IMG/VR virus record: IMGVR_UViG_3300046519_000323 | Coordinates: 24,040-88,039 of that record | Length of the DNA: 64,000 nt | Source of the DNA: a virus | Strand: one strand, 5' to 3' | Part shown: piece after piece, positions 10,690-49,381 of the stretch | Layout of the letters: each line of letters starts with the position of its first letter | Numbering within the stretch: the stretch's first letter is position 1 | The notes under the pieces: model-generated | Seen by the model: only the letters and a program-made list of their open reading frames with translations | The model's database searches: none | Told to the model about the DNA's origin: nothing | Program-made: the position numbers and the translations under genes

Positions 10690-11452
10690 CCCCTGTTAAA
10701 CTCAAGCTTTCAAGTGTTTCTAAGATACCTGCAGTGAAAGACGGCGCTCGGTCGGCTTCAGGAATTTGATATTTACGTTCATATCTACGTATTACCCTGT
10801 CTTGCTCTTTATTGAGCCTTTCAAGTTCAGTGACTTGGTTTGTAAGCTTCGGAAATGCACGCTGCATATAAAGTATTTGTTCAGGGTCTTGTAAACGCGC
10901 AAGAGCCATACACATCAAATTAAACTCGTTTTGAAAATTCCGCTCATTAAACGCAAACGCTTTAAAGCTATTCATAACATCCGTATGACTGCGCCACATT
11001 CGCGGCTTATTGTCGTAAGTTGTTCCGCATGGCGTTTTAGGTACGGCCATAGCGCCAGCCATAACCTTACAGCGTCCACCAGCTGAAACATAAATCAGGC
11101 CCCATTTTTCTGGCAGCTCTTCAACTTTAATTAATCCTTTAGGGCATATGTAGTAACGCCATTTACCTATACCCGTTTCGGGTTTACCTCGATGAGGCTT
11201 TTTCCGATCTGCTAAGAAATCAGAACGGCTCACTTTTGCCTCTAAAACAACGCTACCAACATCATGACCACGTTCATAAACCTTGCCGTCAAACTCATAT
11301 GGTTCGACTGTACCGTGACGAATACCAAAGACATCAGGGTTTTCGCCGTAACATGCTGCTTCAATAATTGTAAAGTGGCATCCATGGCCGTTTGCTGATT
11401 CTGGACGCTTAAGAAACTTAGCGCCTATTTCACATAGCTCTCTATGATTCAT
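10661..11452 (-). CDS. MmcB-like (PD-(D/E)xK) DNA repair nuclease family protein
   Basis: Trimmed to MNHRELCEIGAKFLK.... ENPDVFGI...VVLEAKVSRSDFLADRKKPHR resembles the MmcB/DUF1052 signature, from memory. Confidence 0.5.
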   Translation of the reverse strand: MNHRELCEIGAKFLKRPESANGHGCHFTIIEAACYGENPDVFGIRHGTVEPYEFDGKVYERGHDVGSVVLEAKVSRSDFLADRKKPHRGKPETGIGKWRYYICPKGLIKVEELPEKWGLIYVSAGGRCKVMAGAMAVPKTPCGTTYDNKPRMWRSHTDVMNSFKAFAFNERNFQNEFNLMCMALARLQDPEQILYMQRAFPKLTNQVTELERLNKEQDRVIRRYERKYQIPEADRAPSFTAGILETLESLSLTGVEGNEATTV

Positions 11453-17953: not shown

Positions 17954-19216
17954 TTAAAGTTCTAATGAATCGACTGATTCTGCAACATCTTCTTCGGTAC
18001 CATCTCTTTCATCTTCTTGTTTTTGTAAATTCAGTAAACCATTTTTTAACTGACACCATACGTAATAATCAAAATCAATAAGTTTCACATCATTCAATAG
18101 GCTTGGTTTGCTCTTTAACAATGTCGCAAGGATATCTTTAGCTAGCTTACGGTTACTCACTTCATCATCTGTTACCGAGCCAGAATAAAACTCGCTGTAA
18201 TCATTTAAGAATTGAGGACACGATACAAGGAAACCTATTTGTTTCTGAGTAAAGCTATCAATGCGATTTATATATTTAATTCGATCAGGATGTTTGAAGT
18301 GTGAACCATCATCACTGTAAGGCACTGCAGCTTTAAGTAGCTTAGTTTTAAAGGCAAGTAATTTTGCTTCTATCTTCTTCATCCGATCTGAAGCTTTATA
18401 TTCATAATTAAAACGTAGCCCAACGATACTACGGCCACTCTTAAGATTTTCGACCTTAGTGATATTGATATTCGAAAGGTCATTAATTTCTTTAATTGAA
18501 GGATTGATAATCCGCCGTTTTAAATTATCAATATCGTCATATGACGGCTTATCCTCTAAATCGAGTGAAAATTTTAAATCTTCAAGTGATATTTCTAATG
18601 TATTTGATTTCCACTTATTTTCTATCAGCATTCTATACAAACGCATTGAATAGAATCCATCGAGCTGTGTCACTTGTTTAAGCTCATGAGCAAAATAACC
18701 TAATATTTTTTCATCATCTGCGGTATCAACAATTACACGATAGAAGTATTCATAAAATTCAGGAGCAAAACGTATATCAATACTTTTATGCTTAGCAATG
18801 TATTTACAATACGTAATCATTGGAACTTTAGCTGGTTCAGGTGAATCAGGTTCTTTTACTTTCATTACTAACGGCTGAAATTTCGTATAAATACGATGAA
18901 GTGCTTTATCTGCAGTCTTCTCGATCTGTTGTAATTCTTTTTCATCGAGTTCAGTTCCTTCACCTTGCAAAACTTTCTTATGTGTAAGTTCAGCGTAATT
19001 ACGCGCTGATATACGTATCTTTGCAAGCGGGTCAATATTTCCTTGATTCTCTAATTCCATTTTGCGAATTACGATCATAGCTGCAAACATGAGTTTTTCT
19101 TGGTTAGGGTCATTGCTATAACTTGCATAAGCCATAGTATTACGCGTAACAACCAAAGAATCTTTTTTTACTCGTTTAGCTATAATCACTTCTTCTTTTT
19201 GTTCGGTCATGAACAT
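17954..19216 (-). CDS. plasmid replication initiator (Rep_3/RepB-like)
   Basis: 420 aa. N-terminus (VVTRNTMAYASYSNDPNQEKLMFAAMIVIRK) is typical of iteron-binding Rep_3 initiators. Thirteen iterons lie directly upstream. Confidence 0.7.
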   Translation of the reverse strand: MFMTEQKEEVIIAKRVKKDSLVVTRNTMAYASYSNDPNQEKLMFAAMIVIRKMELENQGNIDPLAKIRISARNYAELTHKKVLQGEGTELDEKELQQIEKTADKALHRIYTKFQPLVMKVKEPDSPEPAKVPMITYCKYIAKHKSIDIRFAPEFYEYFYRVIVDTADDEKILGYFAHELKQVTQLDGFYSMRLYRMLIENKWKSNTLEISLEDLKFSLDLEDKPSYDDIDNLKRRIINPSIKEINDLSNINITKVENLKSGRSIVGLRFNYEYKASDRMKKIEAKLLAFKTKLLKAAVPYSDDGSHFKHPDRIKYINRIDSFTQKQIGFLVSCPQFLNDYSEFYSGSVTDDEVSNRKLAKDILATLLKSKPSLLNDVKLIDFDYYVWCQLKNGLLNLQKQEDERDGTEEDVAESVDSLEL

Positions 19217-23357: not shown

Positions 23358-24332
23358 CTAAAAACCTTCAAAGTTGAATAACTGGTCTTCAGGAACCTCA
23401 ACCGTTGGCACCTTCTCAGCTCTTTGATCTGAATTATTTAAGATGAACCGGCTAAAATCTTTAGAAGGTTTTTTAAAAGAGCTGTTTTGAGCAGGTTGGT
23501 TGTAATGATCTGAACTTCCTAAGGCTCTCATACGAGCGAAGTGTGCTCTTTGTCCAGCTGGTGAATGATGGATTTTCAAAAGAAACTTAATCAGATTATT
23601 TAAACGTTGATGATCATTCAAATTTTTATATTGATCATGGTTTGCGTTGAAATCAATAAGGTAGGTATCTAGTTGCTCTTGAGTTTGAATCATTGAGCCT
23701 AAACCTGCCATTTGTAAACGACCAAAAAATATTGGTTCTTTCAGTAGAACCCTGTATTTCTCAAGTAGTTCATTTCTTTTTTCCATGTCCCCTCCCCTAT
23801 TAATCTTATTAAAATTATTACTTCTTAAATCATTGTATTTATTAGTGGTGGGTTCACCGCTAACGGAAAAGCCGTTTTCGGCTTCAGCTTTGTTTTCATC
23901 AATATCATCAAAATTAAAGCCAAGTTGAGCATCAGAAAGCATTGCTTCTTGAGTATCTTCAGAAGCTCGATCTTCAGCTTGAGCTATAATTTTTGTGTCT
24001 ATTGGTGATTCAAAGATTTGATAGACAACTTTGCCAAAAGTGCCATCTTCATTTTTTAACTGAGTACGTTTGATATACCCAGCTTGTTCAAGACGGTTAA
24101 GCATGCCTTGAATTGCATCACGGCCTTCTTTACCCCTTTTTACTAGCGCTTGTATACAAACCCTGTGTTTGTCACCCCACGACAACAATTCAACAAGTAA
24201 ACCTTTATCGGCACGTTTTATATTCGGGTCCCGTAAAAGTTTGTTAGAGAGAACGGTATAAGGGTTTTCTTTGCTGTGCTCAGCACGATAGATGGTCCTT
24301 TGCAGAACATCCAGTACAGCCATATTGGTCAT
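23358..24332 (-). CDS. phage replication initiation / replisome organiser protein (O-like, winged helix)
   Basis: N-terminal winged-helix-like region. Position between the cro-like gene and the DnaC-like loader matches lambdoid O-P organisation. Confidence 0.55.
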   Translation of the reverse strand: MTNMAVLDVLQRTIYRAEHSKENPYTVLSNKLLRDPNIKRADKGLLVELLSWGDKHRVCIQALVKRGKEGRDAIQGMLNRLEQAGYIKRTQLKNEDGTFGKVVYQIFESPIDTKIIAQAEDRASEDTQEAMLSDAQLGFNFDDIDENKAEAENGFSVSGEPTTNKYNDLRSNNFNKINRGGDMEKRNELLEKYRVLLKEPIFFGRLQMAGLGSMIQTQEQLDTYLIDFNANHDQYKNLNDHQRLNNLIKFLLKIHHSPAGQRAHFARMRALGSSDHYNQPAQNSSFKKPSKDFSRFILNNSDQRAEKVPTVEVPEDQLFNFEGF

Positions 24333-30269: not shown

Positions 30270-32423
30270 TTATAGAAAAATTTCAGGTGGGTACGGCGTG
30301 TTGTCTGTTACAGGTTCAAAGTACGTTTCGTTAAGAAAAAAGCCGTTTGGTGCTATTTCTTTGTCTATGGTCATTGAGTCAAACATTACCTGAGGATATG
30401 CCCAAACAAGCTGCTTCATAACGCCCACATCGTTATTATTAACTTTATCGCCTAAAATCCGTTGCCATATTGGAGGCCGATATTCTTTAGTATCATCAAA
30501 CCCATATAAATATGCGATTGCTGAATCTGGAACAAAGCCAACTAAATAAGCAACTTTATCGGCTGGATAATCTAATTCTTCGAGTGGAATTTCATTTACC
30601 GCTTGCTTTGTTAAATCAAGACGACCCTCAAGAATCCAATCATATGCCTCCGTCATAATATAGTCGAAGTTAGGATATTTATAATGTTCGCTAGGGTAGT
30701 TAATATACGTCGCTAGGCTTTCATTATGTGTTCTGATCGATGGAAAAAATATAAGAGGGCAGACCTTTGCACTCGGATAAATCTGTTTAATCATAGTCCG
30801 AATATCACGGCAAGTCTGGCCTAATTTATTTCTTAACCATGTTTTAAACTCATCGTACGGCGTACCAGTTTTATTAATTGCTTCATATATAGTACCTAAA
30901 TCGGGTGCATATAAGCCTGTATCAGCATTAAAAGCTAGTCGAGTTTGATAATCATAAACACACGGTAGATTAGTCGCGGTATTAAACCACCACCACGGCT
31001 CACCGATCTGCATATTTACCTCACATCCGCCTGTCACCATTGTTGCAGCGAACTCTTTAAATGCTTTGTGTAAATAGGCTAGGGCATTAGCATGACATAG
31101 GCTGAAGAAATAACTTGGGGGTTCATAACCAGTACGGCCAAGTGCGTCGTTAATGTCGCGTTGTGCCCAAAACTCATTACCAGCTTGAGAATACATTTCA
31201 AAGCTCACGCTGAAAACAGGGGTGAACCCTGCATCGTTTAAGGCTTTTGCATATGCTTCATGCCATCGAATTGTGCAAGGGTTTACCACATCCTCATTGG
31301 TTACTAATGTGTCGGGTATTTGCCATTTGTTTATAGCTCCATTCCAATACATTTCAGGGTAGTGAGACATACCACAATAATGATTAATAAAGCCCTGGTA
31401 CCCAAGTGCTTGCATATTGTCTACAAGGCGTTGAGGGTTCAAATCGTAATGATCGTCGAAGCTGGTACACATACCCAAATCATGCACAGGTACTTGAACA
31501 ACTTTAGTAAGCAGCTTGGCCCCAGTGCCGGAAACTTGGGAATTAGTGATTCTTAAGTAGCCTACTTCCCCCGCTTCTAATGGATAAGGTGCAACTTCTT
31601 CAGAAGTTGGCAAGCCGTCTGCCCCTAGAACCTTATTTCCTACGTATGAACTTGTAATACCAGCGAAAAACATTTGAGTAATTTTATTTACTGGAAATGG
31701 TTGATCTGCGTAAAAACCTGCCTTAATTTCATCAAAATTAATGCTGATTGTAGAGGTATGGCCGACGGGGAAATCAGCATAATTGTATAAAGCAACATAT
31801 GCCGTTTTTTCTTCACCCTCTTCAATATATTTAATCGTCAGGGTTATGGCTTTTTGCTCGTCATTTAGTGCCGGCATTGACGGCGAGAGCTCAATATCAA
31901 ATTCCCATATCAAACCTGAATAATTGAAATTCGATTCATATGCTAATAATTTGTGATCTTTTTTGTCCTCAGTATCCCATATGATTCCTACTAAATCGTT
32001 GCTCATACGTGATTTGAACAAAACCTCGAACCCATTATCGAAGCTTGTAGTTGTAAATGACATTGTTTGAGGACCGTCAACCCGCCAATACTTAGGGTCG
32101 AAGCGATCAATAAATTTGGTACCTATCCTTAATTGAGGGGTAGTTTGACTGGCTGAGTCAGTTATTCGTAGAACCTGCAAGCTGTTTATGCCCGTGTTTA
32201 AAGCATCTTGAACGGCAGCATAATCTAAATTTCTTGGGTCATAGCCGAGCACGGTACGTATGTTTTTAGCAGTTATATTCATTGGCCTATCAAAACGGCC
32301 ACGTCTGAATTTACCTACATAAACATCATTTATCAGTTGTGAGTCCTTGGAACTAGAAGAGTCTCTAGTTCCTTGGTACTGAATACCCGCCTCAGGCCCT
32401 AATAGGGTCGTTTTGTGTGGCAT
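30270..32423 (-). CDS. tail fibre/tailspike protein with probable TIM-barrel glycosidase-like (depolymerase?) C-terminal region
   Basis: 717 aa. Its ~90-aa N-terminus is shared with the two neighbouring paralogues. The C-terminal part contains IGEPWWWF and other glycosidase-like aromatic/acidic blocks. Confidence 0.5.
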   Translation of the reverse strand: MPHKTTLLGPEAGIQYQGTRDSSSSKDSQLINDVYVGKFRRGRFDRPMNITAKNIRTVLGYDPRNLDYAAVQDALNTGINSLQVLRITDSASQTTPQLRIGTKFIDRFDPKYWRVDGPQTMSFTTTSFDNGFEVLFKSRMSNDLVGIIWDTEDKKDHKLLAYESNFNYSGLIWEFDIELSPSMPALNDEQKAITLTIKYIEEGEEKTAYVALYNYADFPVGHTSTISINFDEIKAGFYADQPFPVNKITQMFFAGITSSYVGNKVLGADGLPTSEEVAPYPLEAGEVGYLRITNSQVSGTGAKLLTKVVQVPVHDLGMCTSFDDHYDLNPQRLVDNMQALGYQGFINHYCGMSHYPEMYWNGAINKWQIPDTLVTNEDVVNPCTIRWHEAYAKALNDAGFTPVFSVSFEMYSQAGNEFWAQRDINDALGRTGYEPPSYFFSLCHANALAYLHKAFKEFAATMVTGGCEVNMQIGEPWWWFNTATNLPCVYDYQTRLAFNADTGLYAPDLGTIYEAINKTGTPYDEFKTWLRNKLGQTCRDIRTMIKQIYPSAKVCPLIFFPSIRTHNESLATYINYPSEHYKYPNFDYIMTEAYDWILEGRLDLTKQAVNEIPLEELDYPADKVAYLVGFVPDSAIAYLYGFDDTKEYRPPIWQRILGDKVNNNDVGVMKQLVWAYPQVMFDSMTIDKEIAPNGFFLNETYFEPVTDNTPYPPEIFL

Positions 32424-44217: not shown

Positions 44218-46062
44218 ATGACAAACATTAATGATTCTTTAAAATCGATGCGGGAAATCTTTTTAGAATGTAATTGGTCTTATGACCTTGAAGAGTATAA
44301 AAATTATAATTATTCATCTTTATGGACAAGCCTTTTCCAAGCTGCTTTTAAGATGAAAGAAGCAGGTAGAGAAGATCACTATCAGGTTCTAACATTACTC
44401 TCATTTATTGTTTCATTTCGTTTAACTACTGAGCGAATACATGAGCCTTTTAAATATGGTCCTGCAGACATTAATGAGGCTCTTGCTGAATTTAGGCCAG
44501 AAGGACCAATACAAGAAGATTTTGATTTTTTTGAATCTATTTTAGATGATATTGAACACCCTTTTTTAAGAGCACGTTTAGCCGATTTTCTCTGGATTTA
44601 TAAAAAACCGAAAAAACAGATATATGCTCATAAAGCAATAGATAGCTATACAGAATTGCCGATTGATCAGCGTTGGTATGAAGATATAAATCTATGTTGG
44701 GAAAGAGCAATAAGATTAGCTATTCAAATTAAAGATTCTGCCCGACTTGATAAAATTCATACTGAAATGTTCAGTGCTATAAAAAGAGAAATTTCTAATA
44801 CTGATTACATATTTTTAGCCCTCTCCATTGGTCAAATTCTTGATGCGCAGTTACTTGATAAACCTTATAGAAAGGACCTAGCAGAATTATATTTTACACA
44901 GGCTAAATCATTAGAAAGTAATCATTACTATGAAGCAGCACGGCAATATTATGAATTAGCTGCTAAAAAATATTATCAAATTAAGGATATGGATAGCCGA
45001 GGAAATGCATTGTGTGCCATCGCTAAATGTTATGAAAATGAGGCGGTAGGACATAAGCTTAAAATAGTGGCTAGTGATCTATATGAAAAAGCATTAGTTG
45101 CGTATCGAGCAATATCTAAAAAGGATAGAGAGCGATTAGGTTTAGAAGGAAAGATACAGGATATTCAAACTAAAATTATTGAGACTGGTAAAGCTTCCTT
45201 AGAGGATTTCATTTATCTACCTAATGAAAAGTTCGATGATACAGAGATTGTTGAACAAGTTAAAAACCAAATTTCGGGTAAAGCTGACCCTATAAATGCC
45301 TTAGAAACATTTGCCTCATTATGTTCTGAACCAGATTATGCATCGCTAGAGGGTCGGGCAAATGAGTTTTTTGATAAATCTTTCTTTGGTCGGATGTTCG
45401 GTGGAAAACATTATGAGCAAGATGGGCGAGTAATAGCTAAAACCCCGGCAATTAATACGGGCGAAAGTGTTGATAGCCCACAAAATCAAGATGCTTTAAG
45501 AGGGCAAATATTTAGAACTTATACAAATGATGTCTCATTGTTTGTTAAAAGTATTATTATGCCCGCATTAGATCAGCTCACCAGTGAACATCAGATTAAT
45601 AAAGAGCTGTTACGTCATATTTGCAAAGATGCACCAATTATTCCTGAGGACCGTTTAAATTTAATAGTGGAGGCACTTTGGTATGGTTTTGAATATGAAT
45701 TTGCTGCTGCGATTCACCTTGCTTGTCCACAATTAGAAAACATCGTTAGACAACAGTTAAAAGCAAAAGGCGCAATTACAGCAAATCACGATATAAATGG
45801 TATTGTAAATGAAGTGGGCCTAAGCACTTTAATGGAGCGACCTGAAGCACTAGAGGTATTTGGTCAAAATCTTACTTTTGAAATTCAATGTGTATTTACT
45901 GAATCGCTGGGCTTTAATTTAAGAAATAAGGTAGCTCATGGATTATTAAATGATGCTGAAGCATTCGACTCGACACAGTGTGTATATGCTTGGTACATGC
46001 TTTTAAGAATTATATTAAAGAATAGGCGCTTTAAAAAAATAAATTTTGAAGTAAGCGAATGA
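44218..46062 (+). CDS. large helical-repeat protein with C-terminal HEPN-type RNxxxH motif (DUF4209-like)
   Basis: 614 aa. GFNLRNKVAHGLLND (R-N-K-V-A-H encoded at 45922..45939) fits the HEPN Rx4-6H motif. TPR-like segments such as YYEAARQYYELAAKKYYQIKD. Conserved-looking PFLRARLADFLW. Confidence 0.6.
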   Translation: MTNINDSLKSMREIFLECNWSYDLEEYKNYNYSSLWTSLFQAAFKMKEAGREDHYQVLTLLSFIVSFRLTTERIHEPFKYGPADINEALAEFRPEGPIQEDFDFFESILDDIEHPFLRARLADFLWIYKKPKKQIYAHKAIDSYTELPIDQRWYEDINLCWERAIRLAIQIKDSARLDKIHTEMFSAIKREISNTDYIFLALSIGQILDAQLLDKPYRKDLAELYFTQAKSLESNHYYEAARQYYELAAKKYYQIKDMDSRGNALCAIAKCYENEAVGHKLKIVASDLYEKALVAYRAISKKDRERLGLEGKIQDIQTKIIETGKASLEDFIYLPNEKFDDTEIVEQVKNQISGKADPINALETFASLCSEPDYASLEGRANEFFDKSFFGRMFGGKHYEQDGRVIAKTPAINTGESVDSPQNQDALRGQIFRTYTNDVSLFVKSIIMPALDQLTSEHQINKELLRHICKDAPIIPEDRLNLIVEALWYGFEYEFAAAIHLACPQLENIVRQQLKAKGAITANHDINGIVNEVGLSTLMERPEALEVFGQNLTFEIQCVFTESLGFNLRNKVAHGLLNDAEAFDSTQCVYAWYMLLRIILKNRRFKKINFEVSE

Positions 46063-46068
46063 AAAGAT

Positions 46069-46092
46069 TGCCCTCTTTGTGAGGGCATTTTT
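46069..46092. terminator. bidirectional terminator between convergent genes
   Basis: TGCCCTC tttgt GAGGGCA followed by TTTTT. Confidence 0.7.
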
Positions 46093-46096
46093 AATA

Positions 46097-46669
46097 TTAA
46101 TATTCTTGGACAGGTTCGCAAATCATTGATAAGAAATAATCAAATAATGCTTCTCTTTGATCTACTTCAAGCTTACTTATGAGTTGCGTTAAAGCCCCAT
46201 CAATTATAAATAGCAACAAGTTTGCATCTTGTAGAGTTGTAGTAGAGTTGTAAGACCTAATCATTTTATGAATTTCATGAACTAACCATTTCCTATAATC
46301 TGTGATTGTTGTGTAAGCTTCAGGGTACTCATTTTTTATCTCAAATATTCCCTTAAATAATAAAAAGTAATCACTCTTAATATCTGCATGAAGGAAAAAA
46401 ACTTGTTTGAGCTGATCTATTACAGATATATCTGTAGATAAATGCGCTGCTGACATGACTTGTACTTTTAATTTTTCGCTTTTAAAAATTAAACAGGTTG
46501 TTATGAGCTTTTCTTTTTTTGGGAAATACTTATAAAGGGTCATTTTTGAAACATCAGATTCATTTGCAATTGTATTTACCCCTGTGTTATGAAAACCAAG
46601 TTCTGTAAAAAAATTGCAAGATGTCTCGATTAAATTAAGTATTTTTTCTGTACGCAGTAAATTTGCCAT
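46097..46669 (-). CDS. TetR-family transcriptional regulator
   Basis: Trimmed to MANLLRTEKILNLIE.... HTH GFHNTGVNTIANESDVSKMTLYKYFPKKEKLI. Confidence 0.8.
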   Translation of the reverse strand: MANLLRTEKILNLIETSCNFFTELGFHNTGVNTIANESDVSKMTLYKYFPKKEKLITTCLIFKSEKLKVQVMSAAHLSTDISVIDQLKQVFFLHADIKSDYFLLFKGIFEIKNEYPEAYTTITDYRKWLVHEIHKMIRSYNSTTTLQDANLLLFIIDGALTQLISKLEVDQREALFDYFLSMICEPVQEY

Positions 46670-46885
46670 ACATCTAACACCTTTAATATGTACCATTAAT
46701 TAATACGAATTGACGTGATGGTCTTTCTAAATATCAAAAAAATGGCATGCAAAAGTTCATTGAGTTGCGATTAAACACCTCAAAACTTAAAAGAAATTTT
46801 AAAAAATAGATTATTCAGAATTGATGACTTTTAATTGATCAACTCTAAAAGAATGTAATTATGTTGTATCTTTATATTGAATATG

Positions 46886-47125
46886 CATGGCGGTAGTCCT
46901 CCATTATTTCTAATAGAAAATCTGCCATGAATTTATAAATTGGTGGCAGAACGAAAGAGGGTTGACAGACTGGGCAAGACACCAGCACACATAAATGTGT
47001 CCCTCTCCCGTCCTACCGCTACGAGAGGGGACGAGAAGCACACACAAAATTAATCCTCAGAAAGAATTAATTCTGATGCTGTCTTGCACAACGAGGTCTG
47101 TCAAAACCTCCTGGCTTGGGGCCAG
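46886..47125. ncRNA. candidate structured RNA (or DNA structure): GC-rich island of nested helices, class unknown
   Basis: About 50% GC by hand count over 46941..47130, against very AT-rich flanks. Complementary pairs: 46886-93/46922-29, 46962-70/47096-104, 46974-81/47080-87, 46999-47007/47023-32, 47048-54/47066-72 and 47111-15/47121-25. Confidence 0.35.
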
Positions 47126-47258
47126 ACTGAGAAGAATAAAGAGAGGTTATAAAACTGTCAATAAACTATATTTTTTTAATTGTAAAAAAAAATTGAAAAT
47201 AAATAAATACTTAACAATTCAAATGCCTGTTAATTGAACGTAACCCTTTTTATTAAAT

Positions 47259-47273
47259 TTGATTAACAATCAA
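47259..47273. promoter_or_regulatory. 15-bp palindrome TTGATTAACAATCAA (candidate TetR-type operator)
   Basis: Perfect inverted repeat with the same TTGATT/AATCAA arms as the umuC-proximal repeat. Confidence 0.4.
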
Positions 47274-47401
47274 ACAGAATTTTTAATTTATTATTTTTAA
47301 ACCTAGACTTATGTATTTTTAACAAGTCTTAATTACTCGCTATTACTGTTTCTACCACCTATCGCTAATATTTGAAATCGTCAAAAACACCCGTTACGAT
47401 T

Positions 47402-47428
47402 AACTTGATTTTGTTACGTAATCAAGTT
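47402..47428. promoter_or_regulatory. inverted repeat AACTTGATT-N9-AATCAAGTT ending 5 nt before the umuC ATG
   Basis: Perfect 9-bp arms. The AACTTGA/TCAAGTT arms recall the published Acinetobacter UmuDAb SOS-box arms (from memory, unverified). Confidence 0.45.
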
Positions 47429-47433
47429 TTATC

Positions 47434-48729
47434 ATGGAAAAAAAGGTTTATGCACTCGCTGATATTAACAACGCTTATTGTAGTTGTGAGCGGGTTTTTA
47501 ACCCTCAGTTACTTGGTAAGCCATTGATTATATTAAGTAATAATGATGGTTGTGCAATAAGTCGCTCAGACGAAGCCAAAAATATAGGCATCAAGATGGG
47601 GGTGCCACTTTTCAAACTTAAAGAAATTATTAAAGAACATAATGTGATTGTTCACTCGAGCAATTTTCCGGTCTATGCGGAAATGTCACGGCGATTTTAT
47701 AATGTTCTTGCTGAGTTTGTTGGTGAAAAAGAATTAGAAATTTATTCAATTGATGAGTGTTTTCTTGATTTAACTACTTTTCAAACATTACACGACTTAA
47801 CTGAATATGCTCGAACGATGAAAAACCAAGTATATCAATACCTTGGTTTACCAATTTGCATCGGAATTGGTCGCTCCAAAACGGAGGCCAAGCTCGCCAA
47901 TTTTATAGCTAAAAAGAATAAACATTACAAAGGTATATGTAATTTATTAGACATCGATTTAACCAATCTTGAATCAATCTATCAATCAATTCCTATCGAA
48001 GAGGTTTGGGGCATAGGTTCACAGCATGCAAAAAAGTTACGTACGCTTGGGTTTAATACTGTTTATGATTTGGCCATAAATGCAAATCCGCAGCACATAC
48101 AACAACTATTTTCAGTCGTAGTTAAACGCACCGTGCTCGAGCTGCAAGGAACAGCTTGTATTGAGCTTGAACATACAAAGCCTGATCAGAAGCAAATCGT
48201 TTGTTCCCGTGCATTTGGCCGACCTGTAATGAATATTGATGATTTAGGTGAAGCCATATCTCTCTACACTCAAATTGCAGTGCGTAGACTAAGGAAGCAG
48301 GGTTTACTTTGCGGTACCATTACAACATTTGCACATTCAAACCCGTTTGATGAAAACGTAAAGTTTTTTAGAAGTACAGCCTCAATTGGATTACCCGTAC
48401 CTACTGATAGCGCTATGCTTTTAGTAAAGGCAGCAATGCATACTCTGCCCAAATTATTTAAAGAAGATATAGCATTTAAAAAATGTGGTGTGTTACTTAC
48501 TGCGTTGGAACCAAAAACAGGTTTTATTCATGACTTACTAGTTGATATTGATTTAATTGAACAACAAGAAAACTTAATGAAAGCATTTGATAAAATTACT
48601 GAGCGTTTTGGAAAGAAAAAAATCGGTATTGGCAGTTGCACCCTACCCGATCGAAACTGGTCAATGAATCAGCAATATAAATCTCAAAACTATTTTAGTT
48701 TAGAGGGTCTACCATTAATTAATAATTAA
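47434..48729 (+). CDS. umuC: Y-family translesion DNA polymerase V catalytic subunit UmuC
   Basis: Collinear with E. coli UmuC: ALADINNAYCSCERVF, LSNNDGC, YSIDECFLDL, VWGIGS, and the C-terminal W-x-M...Y block. Confidence 0.9.
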   Translation: MEKKVYALADINNAYCSCERVFNPQLLGKPLIILSNNDGCAISRSDEAKNIGIKMGVPLFKLKEIIKEHNVIVHSSNFPVYAEMSRRFYNVLAEFVGEKELEIYSIDECFLDLTTFQTLHDLTEYARTMKNQVYQYLGLPICIGIGRSKTEAKLANFIAKKNKHYKGICNLLDIDLTNLESIYQSIPIEEVWGIGSQHAKKLRTLGFNTVYDLAINANPQHIQQLFSVVVKRTVLELQGTACIELEHTKPDQKQIVCSRAFGRPVMNIDDLGEAISLYTQIAVRRLRKQGLLCGTITTFAHSNPFDENVKFFRSTASIGLPVPTDSAMLLVKAAMHTLPKLFKEDIAFKKCGVLLTALEPKTGFIHDLLVDIDLIEQQENLMKAFDKITERFGKKKIGIGSCTLPDRNWSMNQQYKSQNYFSLEGLPLINN

Positions 48730-48841: not shown

Positions 48842-49381
48842 ATGGCTACGCCGTATATTACGATTGGCTGCCCCACAACTGGCGGCGGTCAAGTGATTTC
48901 AGGGAATAACATGTTCCTGATTGAAGGCATTCCCGTTGCTTGTGTTGGTGACAAAGCTACCTGCCCCACTCATAAAATTGTAGCAACGATTGTATCTGGT
49001 GATCCGTACATGCAGATTTTTGGTAAATCTGCAGCACGTGTAAATGATTCCCTTTCTTGTGGTTGTAAACTCCTACCAAAGCAAAATTTAGTTGTTCAAG
49101 ATAACGGCGGTGGTGCGGCGCAAAGTTCTCAAGCCAATAATGCACAAGATAGCTTTGTGCCTCAAACCGATGAACATGGGCTCAAATATCAACTTAAAGA
49201 CCAAGAGACTGGTAAACCTCTCGCTCAACAATACTTTAAATTGAAAGGTCCAGACGGTACCGAGATTGAAGGATTTACAGATAAAAGCGGTTATACAGAA
49301 CTAATAAAAACAGGTACAGAAGCAAAAGAAGTCGATTTAACTACTTTTGATCTTTCGAAACCGATGGCAGAGTGGAATTAA
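48842..49381 (+). CDS. PAAR-domain protein with ~85-aa C-terminal extension
   Basis: GIPVACVGDKATCPTH and GKSAARVNDSLSCGC are PAAR-repeat-like (AxxGD/ND...C, SAAR). Gly/Gln linker, then an extra domain. Confidence 0.7.
   Translation: MATPYITIGCPTTGGGQVISGNNMFLIEGIPVACVGDKATCPTHKIVATIVSGDPYMQIFGKSAARVNDSLSCGCKLLPKQNLVVQDNGGGAAQSSQANNAQDSFVPQTDEHGLKYQLKDQETGKPLAQQYFKLKGPDGTEIEGFTDKSGYTELIKTGTEAKEVDLTTFDLSKPMAEWN

Follow-up and report, generated by a model that had tools for sequence, protein, structure and literature searches.

The c4 RNA of phages P1 and P7 (immI; Rfam family RF01695, C4 antisense RNA) is a 77-nt RNA with three stems (P1, P2 and P3), which RNase P frees from a leader transcribed from a sigma-70 promoter. 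In phage P1, the promoter is followed by the boxes a1 and b1, a hairpin and c4; the working target, the boxes a2/b2, lies just past c4 over the ribosome-binding site of icd, with ant as the next gene. To our knowledge, the boxes a1 and b1 have no settled function, even in phage P1. The CI immunity RNA of the satellite phage P4 is a small RNA cut from the leader of its own operon with RNase P and complementary to upstream and downstream sites in its own transcript; the pairing leads to premature termination and feedback control. Here we describe a c4-type element on a stretch of phage DNA of 64,000 nucleotides (positions 24,040 to 88,039 of the IMG/VR record IMGVR_UViG_3300046519_000323; "the window" below means this whole stretch). 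It is located on the minus strand between a tetR and a umuC gene, and on balance we favour the view that it is a self-targeting leader RNA.

Elements of this type have been met in Acinetobacter as well. The Group 1 small RNAs (sRNAs) of this genus (Weiss et al. 2016, PMC5320573; Kroeger et al. 2018, PMC6182133) combine, according to the searched text of the two papers, a leader hairpin (Region 1) with a c4 core (Regions 2-3). For A. baumannii AB5075, PMC5320573 describes 21 copies with high expression and apparent processing at a GGW site, annotated with 180-219 nt (Table 1), the Region 1 stem-loop having the loop CACAUU or CUACAUU; for strain ATCC 17978, PMC6182133 gives 18 copies and northern bands of 100-250 nt. 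Besides, the c4-a1b1 motif (Weinberg et al. 2010; RF03163) consists of two adjacent hairpins upstream of c4. Finally, eleven related regulators of the TetR type form the TTTR family of A. baumannii; they are activated stochastically and thereby drive an opaque-to-translucent virulence switch, and their mRNA levels are raised by the sRNA SrvS (Perez-Varela et al. 2022, PMC9802203).

A C4 antisense RNA on the minus strand

The element is conspicuous by its base composition. In 46941..47130, 96 of the 190 positions are G or C (50.5%), compared with 26.2% and 23.4% in the flanks (46697-46940 and 47131-47433, respectively) and 38% in the whole window. The original prediction, made from the letters alone, had recognized this GC-rich island in an AT-rich gap, and the six complementary pairs that it drew (helices 1 to 6 below, by increasing coordinate) are all present, with the positions and sequences that it gave. 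It had also taken the island for a novel class of structured RNA and had set c4 RNA aside. However, an Rfam scan of the whole window gave one match, to RF01695, on the minus strand (47023..46939), with 56.4 bits (gathering score, 45), an E-value of 3.3e-8 for the window and an alignment over the full model (positions 1-87 of 87). The island thus belongs to a known class, the c4 antisense RNAs, and is ordinary as a member of it; the exclusion of c4 RNA was a mistake. No further Rfam family was matched in 46650-47450 at E <= 10, c4-a1b1 (RF03163) included, and a tRNA or tmRNA was not found in the window.

The strand of the RNA is not in doubt. On the minus strand, the 77-nt core folds with -38.9 kcal/mol (z = -5.1, none of 200 shuffles being as good), and its minimum free energy fold is also the centroid fold; on the plus strand, the values are -23.7 kcal/mol and z = -1.55. 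Furthermore, the P1 stem contains four G.U pairs which exist on the minus strand alone and are A.C mismatches on the opposite one. The c4 RNA is therefore encoded on the minus strand. Its sequence, GGUAGGACGGGAGAGGGACACAUUUAUGUGUGCUGGUGUCUUGCCCAGUCUGUCAACCCUCUUUCGUUCUGCCACCA, may be compared with that of phage P1 c4, GGUGGGGCGUGAUGGGGAGGCUUCGGCCUGCUGGUUUCACUAACGCCAGUCUGUCAACCCUGUCACGUCCUGCCACC: both contain GCUGGU...CCAGUCUGUCAACCCU...CUGCCACC, and the P3 stem, the whole recognition segment a' (GUCUGUCAA) and the 3' end CUGCCACC are identical. The RNA begins with GGU (47017-47015, the expected RNase P site) and ends with GCCACCA (46947-46941), i.e., with an ACCA tail. The 5' GGU and the 3' CCACCA are conserved in the homologues and are the same as in phage P1 c4, so that a cut by RNase P is predicted 5' of G47017. 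On the other hand, the window RNA differs from the c4 RNAs of P1 and P7 in its recognition loop b', which is unique, in its P2 loop (UUUA instead of a UUCG-type tetraloop) and in the host genus, Acinetobacter. The coordinates of all features are summarized in the table.

Features of the c4 element and its surroundings in the window (strand and supporting evidence as obtained in the analysis)
Feature	Position	Strand	Evidence or remark
Sigma-70-type promoter, TTGACA-17 nt-TATTCT	47133..47161	-	scores 10/12
Leader hairpin H1, CUGGC-CCCAA-GCCAG (helix 6; Region 1 of Group 1 sRNAs)	47111..47125	-	fold
Leader hairpin H2, GAGG-UUUUGACAGA-CCUC	47093..47110	-	fold
Target box a1 (UUGACAGAC), in and beside the H2 loop	47104..47096	-	perfect 9-nt complement of a'
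Target box b1 (GCAAGACA)	47080..47087	-	perfect 8-nt complement of b'
Leader hairpin H3, AAUUAAUUC / GGAUUAAUU, loop UUUCUGA, then UUGUGUGUG	47039..47072 (hairpin 47072-47048)	-	core is helix 5
Spacer before c4 with pyrimidine tract (GUCCCCUCUC, 47032..47023)	47018..47038	-	complementary to 5' arm of P1 stem; half of helix 4
Mature c4-type antisense RNA, 77 nt	46941..47017	-	RF01695, fold, homologue pairing
c4 P1 stem, 17 bp	47017-47001 with 46961-46945	-	fold
c4 P2 stem	47000-46996 with 46991-46987	-	fold
c4 P3 stem	46985-46982 with 46973-46970	-	fold
b' recognition loop (UGUCUUGC), loop of P3	46974..46981	-	mean unpaired probability 0.65
a' recognition segment (GUCUGUCAA), single-stranded joiner between P3 and the 3' arm of P1	46962..46970	-	unpaired probability 0.79
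Downstream module: outer stem CAUGGC/GCCAUG (46929-46924 with 46891-46886; helix 1) around a hairpin hiding the Shine-Dalgarno sequence	46859..46929	-	-16.2 kcal/mol, z = -3.26
Mini-ORF of 9 codons, MHIQYKDTT and stop	46888..46859	-	predicted translation
TetR-family regulator, 190 aa, ATG at 46669	46097..46669	-	Pfam TetR_N, E = 1.7e-10; co-oriented, 272 nt past c4 3' end
Terminator-like hairpin, 7-bp stem with 5 G-C pairs	46069..46087	both	where tetR and the convergent 614-aa gene end
Perfect inverted repeat, AACTTGA-TTTT-GTTAC-GTAA-TCAAGTT	47402-47428	+	6 nt before umuC start codon 47434

These results bear on the reading with which the island was originally presented, i.e., a multi-helix RNA of a novel class on the plus strand or else a structured DNA site (such as an origin or a recombination element), possibly tied to umuC. 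The helices do exist, and the nested model made from them is of low energy, but this energy belongs to the minus-strand precursor. The plus strand folds no better than shuffled sequences, either in the core or in the leader (z = -0.98 for the latter), and the island matches a curated family. As the pairing is strand-specific, with its G.U pairs on the minus strand only, and covaries as RNA in the homologues (see below), a structured DNA site is unlikely. Nor is a connection with umuC or with the umuD gene missing upstream of it supported: the element points away from umuC, the neighbours on the umuC side differ in nearly every homologous locus, and a umuC gene adjoins the element in one other locus only, as a fragment. 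We therefore regard this reading as very improbable. An open reading frame (ORF) on the plus strand (46995..47237) was also considered; it shares sequence with the antisense of c4, with the leader and with the promoter, and is unsupported. What did stand was the proposal of a phage-borne, structured regulatory RNA, since genes for a portal (56604-58193), a baseplate (61434-62888) and a tail protein (30270-32423) are present in the window, where the phage-type annotations span 4542-62888. Two DNA methyltransferases, a replication-initiator-like protein (17954-19216) and a polyvalent LPD1/InPase protein (50582-53668) are encoded there as well. Close relatives of the replicon were not found in plasmid or phage collections, where only short patches matched.

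The leader and its recognition code

The leader of the window RNA is built like that of phage P1 immI, with the same order of promoter, a1, b1, hairpin and c4 and with near-equal spacings: b1 lies 8 nt past a1 (7 nt in phage P1), and 62 nt separate b1 from c4 (66 nt in phage P1). The promoter hexamers recur in the homologues at the same distance, and transcription is predicted to start near 47126. From there to the c4 3' end it is about 187 nt, in agreement with the length annotated for Group 1 sRNAs. The box a1 is found in H2, as a1 of phage P1 (UUGACAG) is annotated in the hairpin CGG-UUUUGACAG-CCUG. In the nomenclature of phage P1, helix 2 of the original prediction (TTGACAGAC/GTCTGTCAA) is thus a1 with a', and helix 3 (GCAAGACA/TGTCTTGC) is b1 with b'. 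H3 with its U-tail looks like a terminator or attenuator. Its equivalent between b1 and c4 of phage P1 is a U-tailed hairpin (483-506; ACCGCA/UGCGGU) followed by AUUUUUGUGU.

The same layout recalls the c4-a1b1 motif, with its two adjacent hairpins, the second with the loop UUUUGACAG, and b1 directly 3' of them. However, the covariance model has no match in the window, and the first hairpin has 5 bp instead of the 7 bp of phage P1. The window leader is therefore an architectural parallel of c4-a1b1 rather than a member at the level of the model.

Homologues were gathered by a pattern scan with one genome per species, which yielded 80 loci, nearly all of them from Acinetobacter. They were aligned as 75 distinct leader-plus-c4 sequences; the window sequence aligns over its full length with the 74 others (78% mean column identity). 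Matches to the element in blastn searches were confined to Acinetobacter, in up to 16 places per chromosome, and the identity to copies in plasmids and chromosomes of this genus is 72-86% at the DNA level. Judging from these sequences, the window element belongs to the Acinetobacter "Group I / C4-like" sRNA family. It shares its promoter class with the Group 1 loci L001, L005, L030, L062 and L079, but differs from Group 1 sRNAs in being phage-borne, in its private b', in the variant H1 loop (CCCAA rather than (CU)ACAUU on the stem CUGGC/GCCAG), in an apparently shortened mini-ORF and in the lack of a hairpin plus T-run before tetR. Note that the a1/b1 boxes and a linkage to TetR genes are not described in the searched text of PMC5320573 and PMC6182133.

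The hairpins are preserved throughout the alignment, 96.5% of the cells being paired (42-52% in slid controls) and 10 pairs showing compensatory changes. The stems of c4 are 99.7-100% paired, with compensatory pairs in P2 and P3 and a P1 5' arm that was fixed by the search pattern. Among the leader hairpins, H1 is 100% paired (one compensatory pair), H2 has compensatory changes at all 4 stem pairs, and H3 is 89.9% paired (3 pairs changed on both sides). Both pairings of the recognition sequences covary strongly. The a1:a' helix is paired in 96.4% of cells (slid controls, 22-32%), and 4 of its 9 pairs changed on both sides in 15-35 sequences. As the b' loops vary in length, they were tested sequence by sequence: there are 34 distinct loops, each with its own b1 match, and the longest Watson-Crick run has a mean of 7.4 nt for cognate and 3.4 nt for non-cognate combinations. 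Altogether, 44 distinct a'/b' combinations were seen, all with matching a1/b1. The two long-range helices of the original prediction have thus been maintained by evolution. In the window, a1/b1 fit a'/b' at 17 of 17 positions, although its b' loop (UGUCUUGC) occurs in none of the other 43 combinations. For helix 4, whose partner arm was fixed by the search pattern, the pyrimidine tract is 86.5% paired in the homologues, compared with 88% in a slid control.

Targets of the RNA and a two-state precursor

A scan for an a-box together with a b-box on both strands of the 64-kb window found the a1/b1 boxes of the leader and the antisense of the gene itself, and nothing else. All other candidates are weak; the best of them, at 10798-10824 on the minus strand, carries a mismatch in its a-box and falls within a 288-aa ORF. 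A scan for duplexes by energy only was uninformative, because the stem bases inflate the scores. The UGGCAGA box found downstream of c4 was considered as a degenerate a2 and rejected, as it is constant over all a' types and does not covary.

This outcome has to be weighed against the possibility that the RNA is a classical immunity RNA of the phage P1 type acting in trans, with an a2/b2-like target at an antirepressor or kil-like gene of the same or a related incoming phage outside the 64-kb window, and with a1/b1 merely titrating c4. The window is phage DNA, the RNA and its leader are built like immI, and a private b' specificity would suit heteroimmunity, as between P1 and P7. Moreover, a subgroup of homologues (L002, L063, L082) keeps a P1-like a2 (UUGACAG) 4 nt past c4 and b2 beside a GGAG ribosome-binding site. 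However, this subgroup is the exception: between c4 and tetR of 71 loci, no cognate-specific complement of b' was detected (5.22 cognate against 5.29). In the window, no second a+b site was found except for the imperfect one within a coding region mentioned above, and tblastn revealed no homologues of icd or ant; the mini-ORF and the TetR-family gene follow c4 instead. The exact b'-a' string had no match in viral or in metagenome contigs, and the a-N-b pattern search of IMG/VR gave at least 119 matches which are apparently due to chance, being located in unrelated coding regions and none of them beside a c4 gene. An immunity function of this type thus appears rather unlikely, although it is the most serious competitor. 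Since no part of the window other than its own leader matches both segments, the most likely target of the RNA is the transcript from which it derives. In logic, the closest analogue of such self-targeting known to us is the P4 CI RNA, but there is no match in sequence or model (C4 is the sole Rfam family reported), and the downstream seqC of P4 has no counterpart in the window.

The fold of the precursor points in the same direction. For the 187-nt precursor of the window, the c4 fold (-73.1 kcal/mol) and a closed fold (-72.4 kcal/mol) are predicted to be nearly equal, with an ensemble probability of 0.37 for the long-range pairs. If a1:a' and b1:b' are forced to form, the best structure is approximately the nested multi-helix model of the original prediction, helices 4 and 5 included; this model therefore survives as a predicted alternative fold of the precursor, but on the minus strand. 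The pyrimidine tract pairs in the closed fold alone. Among 74 precursors of the family, the two folds differ by a median of 0.8 kcal/mol and by no more than 3 kcal/mol in 81%, the closed fold being the minimum in about half. The precursor of phage P1 has the same property (-75.3 kcal/mol for the c4 fold and -74.6 kcal/mol for the closed fold). In its closed fold (L004, NC_005856, 431-620), 0.7 kcal/mol above the c4 fold, a1:a' and b1:b' are accompanied by ACGCCC pairing with GGGCGU of the c4 5' arm, which is analogous to helix 4 of the window. We know of no discussion of either this closed fold or the U-tailed hairpin for phage P1.

Based on these predictions, the following mechanism may be proposed. 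Transcription from the putative promoter would first produce the leader of about 110 nt, with H1, H2 carrying a1, then b1 and the U-tailed H3, and then the 77-nt RNA, whose 17-bp stem and ACCA tail would mimic the acceptor end of a tRNA. RNase P would cut 5' of G47017 and free c4, as in phages P1 and P7, and free c4 would expose b' in the P3 loop and a' in the joiner. In cis, the closed fold (a1:a', b1:b' and the pyrimidine tract on the 5' arm of P1) would remove the RNase P substrate, as it lacks the tRNA-like stem, and would hide the recognition loops. In trans, free c4 would bind the leaders of new transcripts. Either way, the outcome would be an RNA-level feedback on the amount of c4 and on the read-through to the mini-ORF and tetR. 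We consider this self-targeting function the probable one, with moderate confidence.

Several points speak against it. The near-equal energies are a thermodynamic prediction, in part expected from 17 nt of complementarity, and covariation cannot tell pairing in cis from pairing in trans. The homologues were collected with an exact 21-nt pattern in the 5' arm of P1, so that this arm could not vary and only G-C/G-U changes are visible there. The c4-a1b1 model RF03163 fits phage P1 (51 bits) and fails to match the window leader in 46650-47450 even at E <= 10. As to the regulated output, a2/b2 boxes of the P1 type were not found downstream of c4 in the window. Of the 71 relatives, 64 have a hairpin plus T-run about 226 nt past c4, before tetR, and co-transcription of c4 and tetR may thus not be the rule among them. 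Finally, for this replicon the promoter, the start site, the RNase P cut and the read-through into tetR are all inferred.

The c4-TetR cassette and the regulators of phase variation

The gene downstream of c4 is a nearly constant companion. In 70 of 84 c4 copies of Acinetobacter, a gene homologous to the window tetR (35-47% identity) is present on the same strand 270-361 nt downstream, while the genes that flank this cassette to the left and right belong to 39-40 unrelated clusters. The classes of promoter regions follow the clades of TetR, which suggests that promoter, RNA and regulator travel as a unit. The real partner of the c4 element, as far as gene order can tell, is tetR and not umuC. 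In the window, neither a terminator-like nor a promoter-like site was found between c4 and tetR, and therefore the two are probably co-transcribed; the terminator-like hairpin past tetR is likely to be the end of this transcript.

An inverted repeat, TTTACAATTAAAA / TTTGAATTGTTAA (minus strand; 47174-47186 with 47211-47223), is located some 15-60 nt upstream of the -35 hexamer and is conserved in the promoter class of L001, L005, L030, L062 and L079, whose TetR proteins are the nearest to that of the window. This repeat may serve as an operator to which the TetR of the same cassette binds; note that co-evolution and common descent are inseparable for the inverted repeats at c4 promoters and the clade-linked promoter classes.

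Between c4 and tetR, most copies share the same order irrespective of their specificity: a UGGCAGA box, a hairpin burying a GGAG, a variable start codon and a short ORF. In the window, the Shine-Dalgarno sequence GGAGG (46902-46898) is sequestered by the arms UUUUCUAUUA/UAAUGGAGGA, and the whole is enclosed by helix 1, which is present as originally drawn except that its G-T pair becomes an A.C mismatch on the actual RNA strand. The homologues have a corresponding GGAG hidden by AACUCC/GGAGUU or UCCAAU/AUUGGA, the arms of this hairpin covarying among the cassettes, a TTG, ATG or GTG start codon and a short ORF. The length of this ORF ranges from 9 to 29 aa: several loci have 9 aa, like the window, most have 17 aa (LHIHYFLAAFAKSYNDTT), and L002 has 29 aa. 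The "coding" sequence of the 17-aa form includes a hairpin of its own, UUGGC-N6-GCCAA. The window copy looks internally shortened. The module may encode a peptide, be a leader ORF or be a pure RNA structure. The UGGCAGA-type box of the window is located at 46921-46928 (UGGCAGAU), and most cassettes have the same box. The 3' arm of a hairpin in SrvS (GCGGCAGAU...AUCUGCCGC; PMC9802203 supplement) complements 7 nt of this invariant box, possibly by chance.

The cassette is chromosomal and multi-copy in Acinetobacter, and the window copy could thus be a passenger, i.e., a c4-TetR moron from an Acinetobacter chromosome which is perhaps still transcribed yet idle, or decaying, and plays no regulatory role for the phage. 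Its shortened mini-ORF, the lack of the hairpin plus T-run of its relatives and its atypical P2 and H1 loops would fit such a fate, as would its TetR, which diverges more than any other in the set (over residues 1-60, it has 40% identity, compared with a family mean of 58%). However, all three stems are intact, the promoter scores well, and the unique b' is still perfectly matched by b1. Both sides must have changed together, which argues for continued selection, and we consider an idle passenger improbable.

Regulators of this kind are known from another context. The TTTR regulators of A. baumannii (ABUW_1645, 1959, 2818, 3353 and others) are TetR-type proteins which, judging from published primers, are preceded by the same c4 cassette. 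Of the primers given in PMC9802203 for the 5' regions of ABUW_1645 and ABUW_1959, three match cassette loci exactly and at the expected offsets, one in the c4 3' arm plus CCACCA, one in the mini-ORF hairpin and one in the -35 region of the c4 promoter; the fourth (ABUW_1645) resembles an a1-type hairpin (UUAGCAGAC class) and has no exact match in the loci. C4 is not mentioned in the text of PMC9802203, and our literature search found no paper joining C4-like sRNAs with TTTR genes. The window TetR is homologous to these regulators; since it is divergent in the region of the DNA-binding helix (residues 1-60), the same operator or switch phenotype cannot be assumed for it.

As for umuC, its lack of a umuD partner has an explanation of a different kind. 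The inverted repeat in front of it has the layout of the UmuDAb/DdrR operator, in which 4 nt separate each of the arms TTGA/TCAA from a GTnAC core (operator probe of Acinetobacter: AACTTGAAAATGTAACTTTTTCAAGTT; PMC11332147). The umuD-less umuC is thus probably under SOS-type control of the host, which accounts for the "missing umuD" without an RNA. Farther on this side, a gene for a PAAR-domain protein (48842-49381, plus strand) is located near the cassette, as is the case in L003, L049, L056, L058, L065 and L069 (up to 86% identity, usually divergent from c4); L003 has the umuC fragment nearby as well, and genes for VgrG-C-terminal, DUF4123 and Tox-REase-5 proteins are found on that side in the plasmid locus L001. 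These neighbours may mark a recurrent toxin-island context. On the other side, the 614-aa gene converging on tetR (44218-46062, plus strand), originally called HEPN-like, encodes the Pfam domains DUF7380 (N-terminal) and DUF4209 (C-terminal).

There is nothing unusual in the class assignment as such, by which a false "novel RNA" is removed and the element is tied to tetR rather than to umuC. Potentially more important is that a1/b1 covary perfectly with a'/b' in 44 specificity types while the downstream target is usually gone, which points to self-targeting as the main role of these boxes. From phage P1 to Acinetobacter, the precursor is predicted to be poised between two near-equal folds, only one of which would be a substrate of RNase P. 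Furthermore, a large TetR family, with the regulators of the virulence-linked opaque/translucent switch among its members, has the C4-like sRNAs of Acinetobacter as its physical 5' regions. It is tempting, if speculative, to imagine the c4 leader as a two-state switch that sets TetR expression cell by cell; we regard this as a tentative idea with the odds against it. If it were true, the stochastic ON/OFF behaviour in A. baumannii phase variation would find its missing cause in the C4-like sRNAs before the TTTR genes, and the copy of the phage, orthogonal by its private a'/b' code, would enable it to impose or sense such a state in its host. The link within the cassette makes the stochastic firing of the switch regulators a testable RNA-switch hypothesis.

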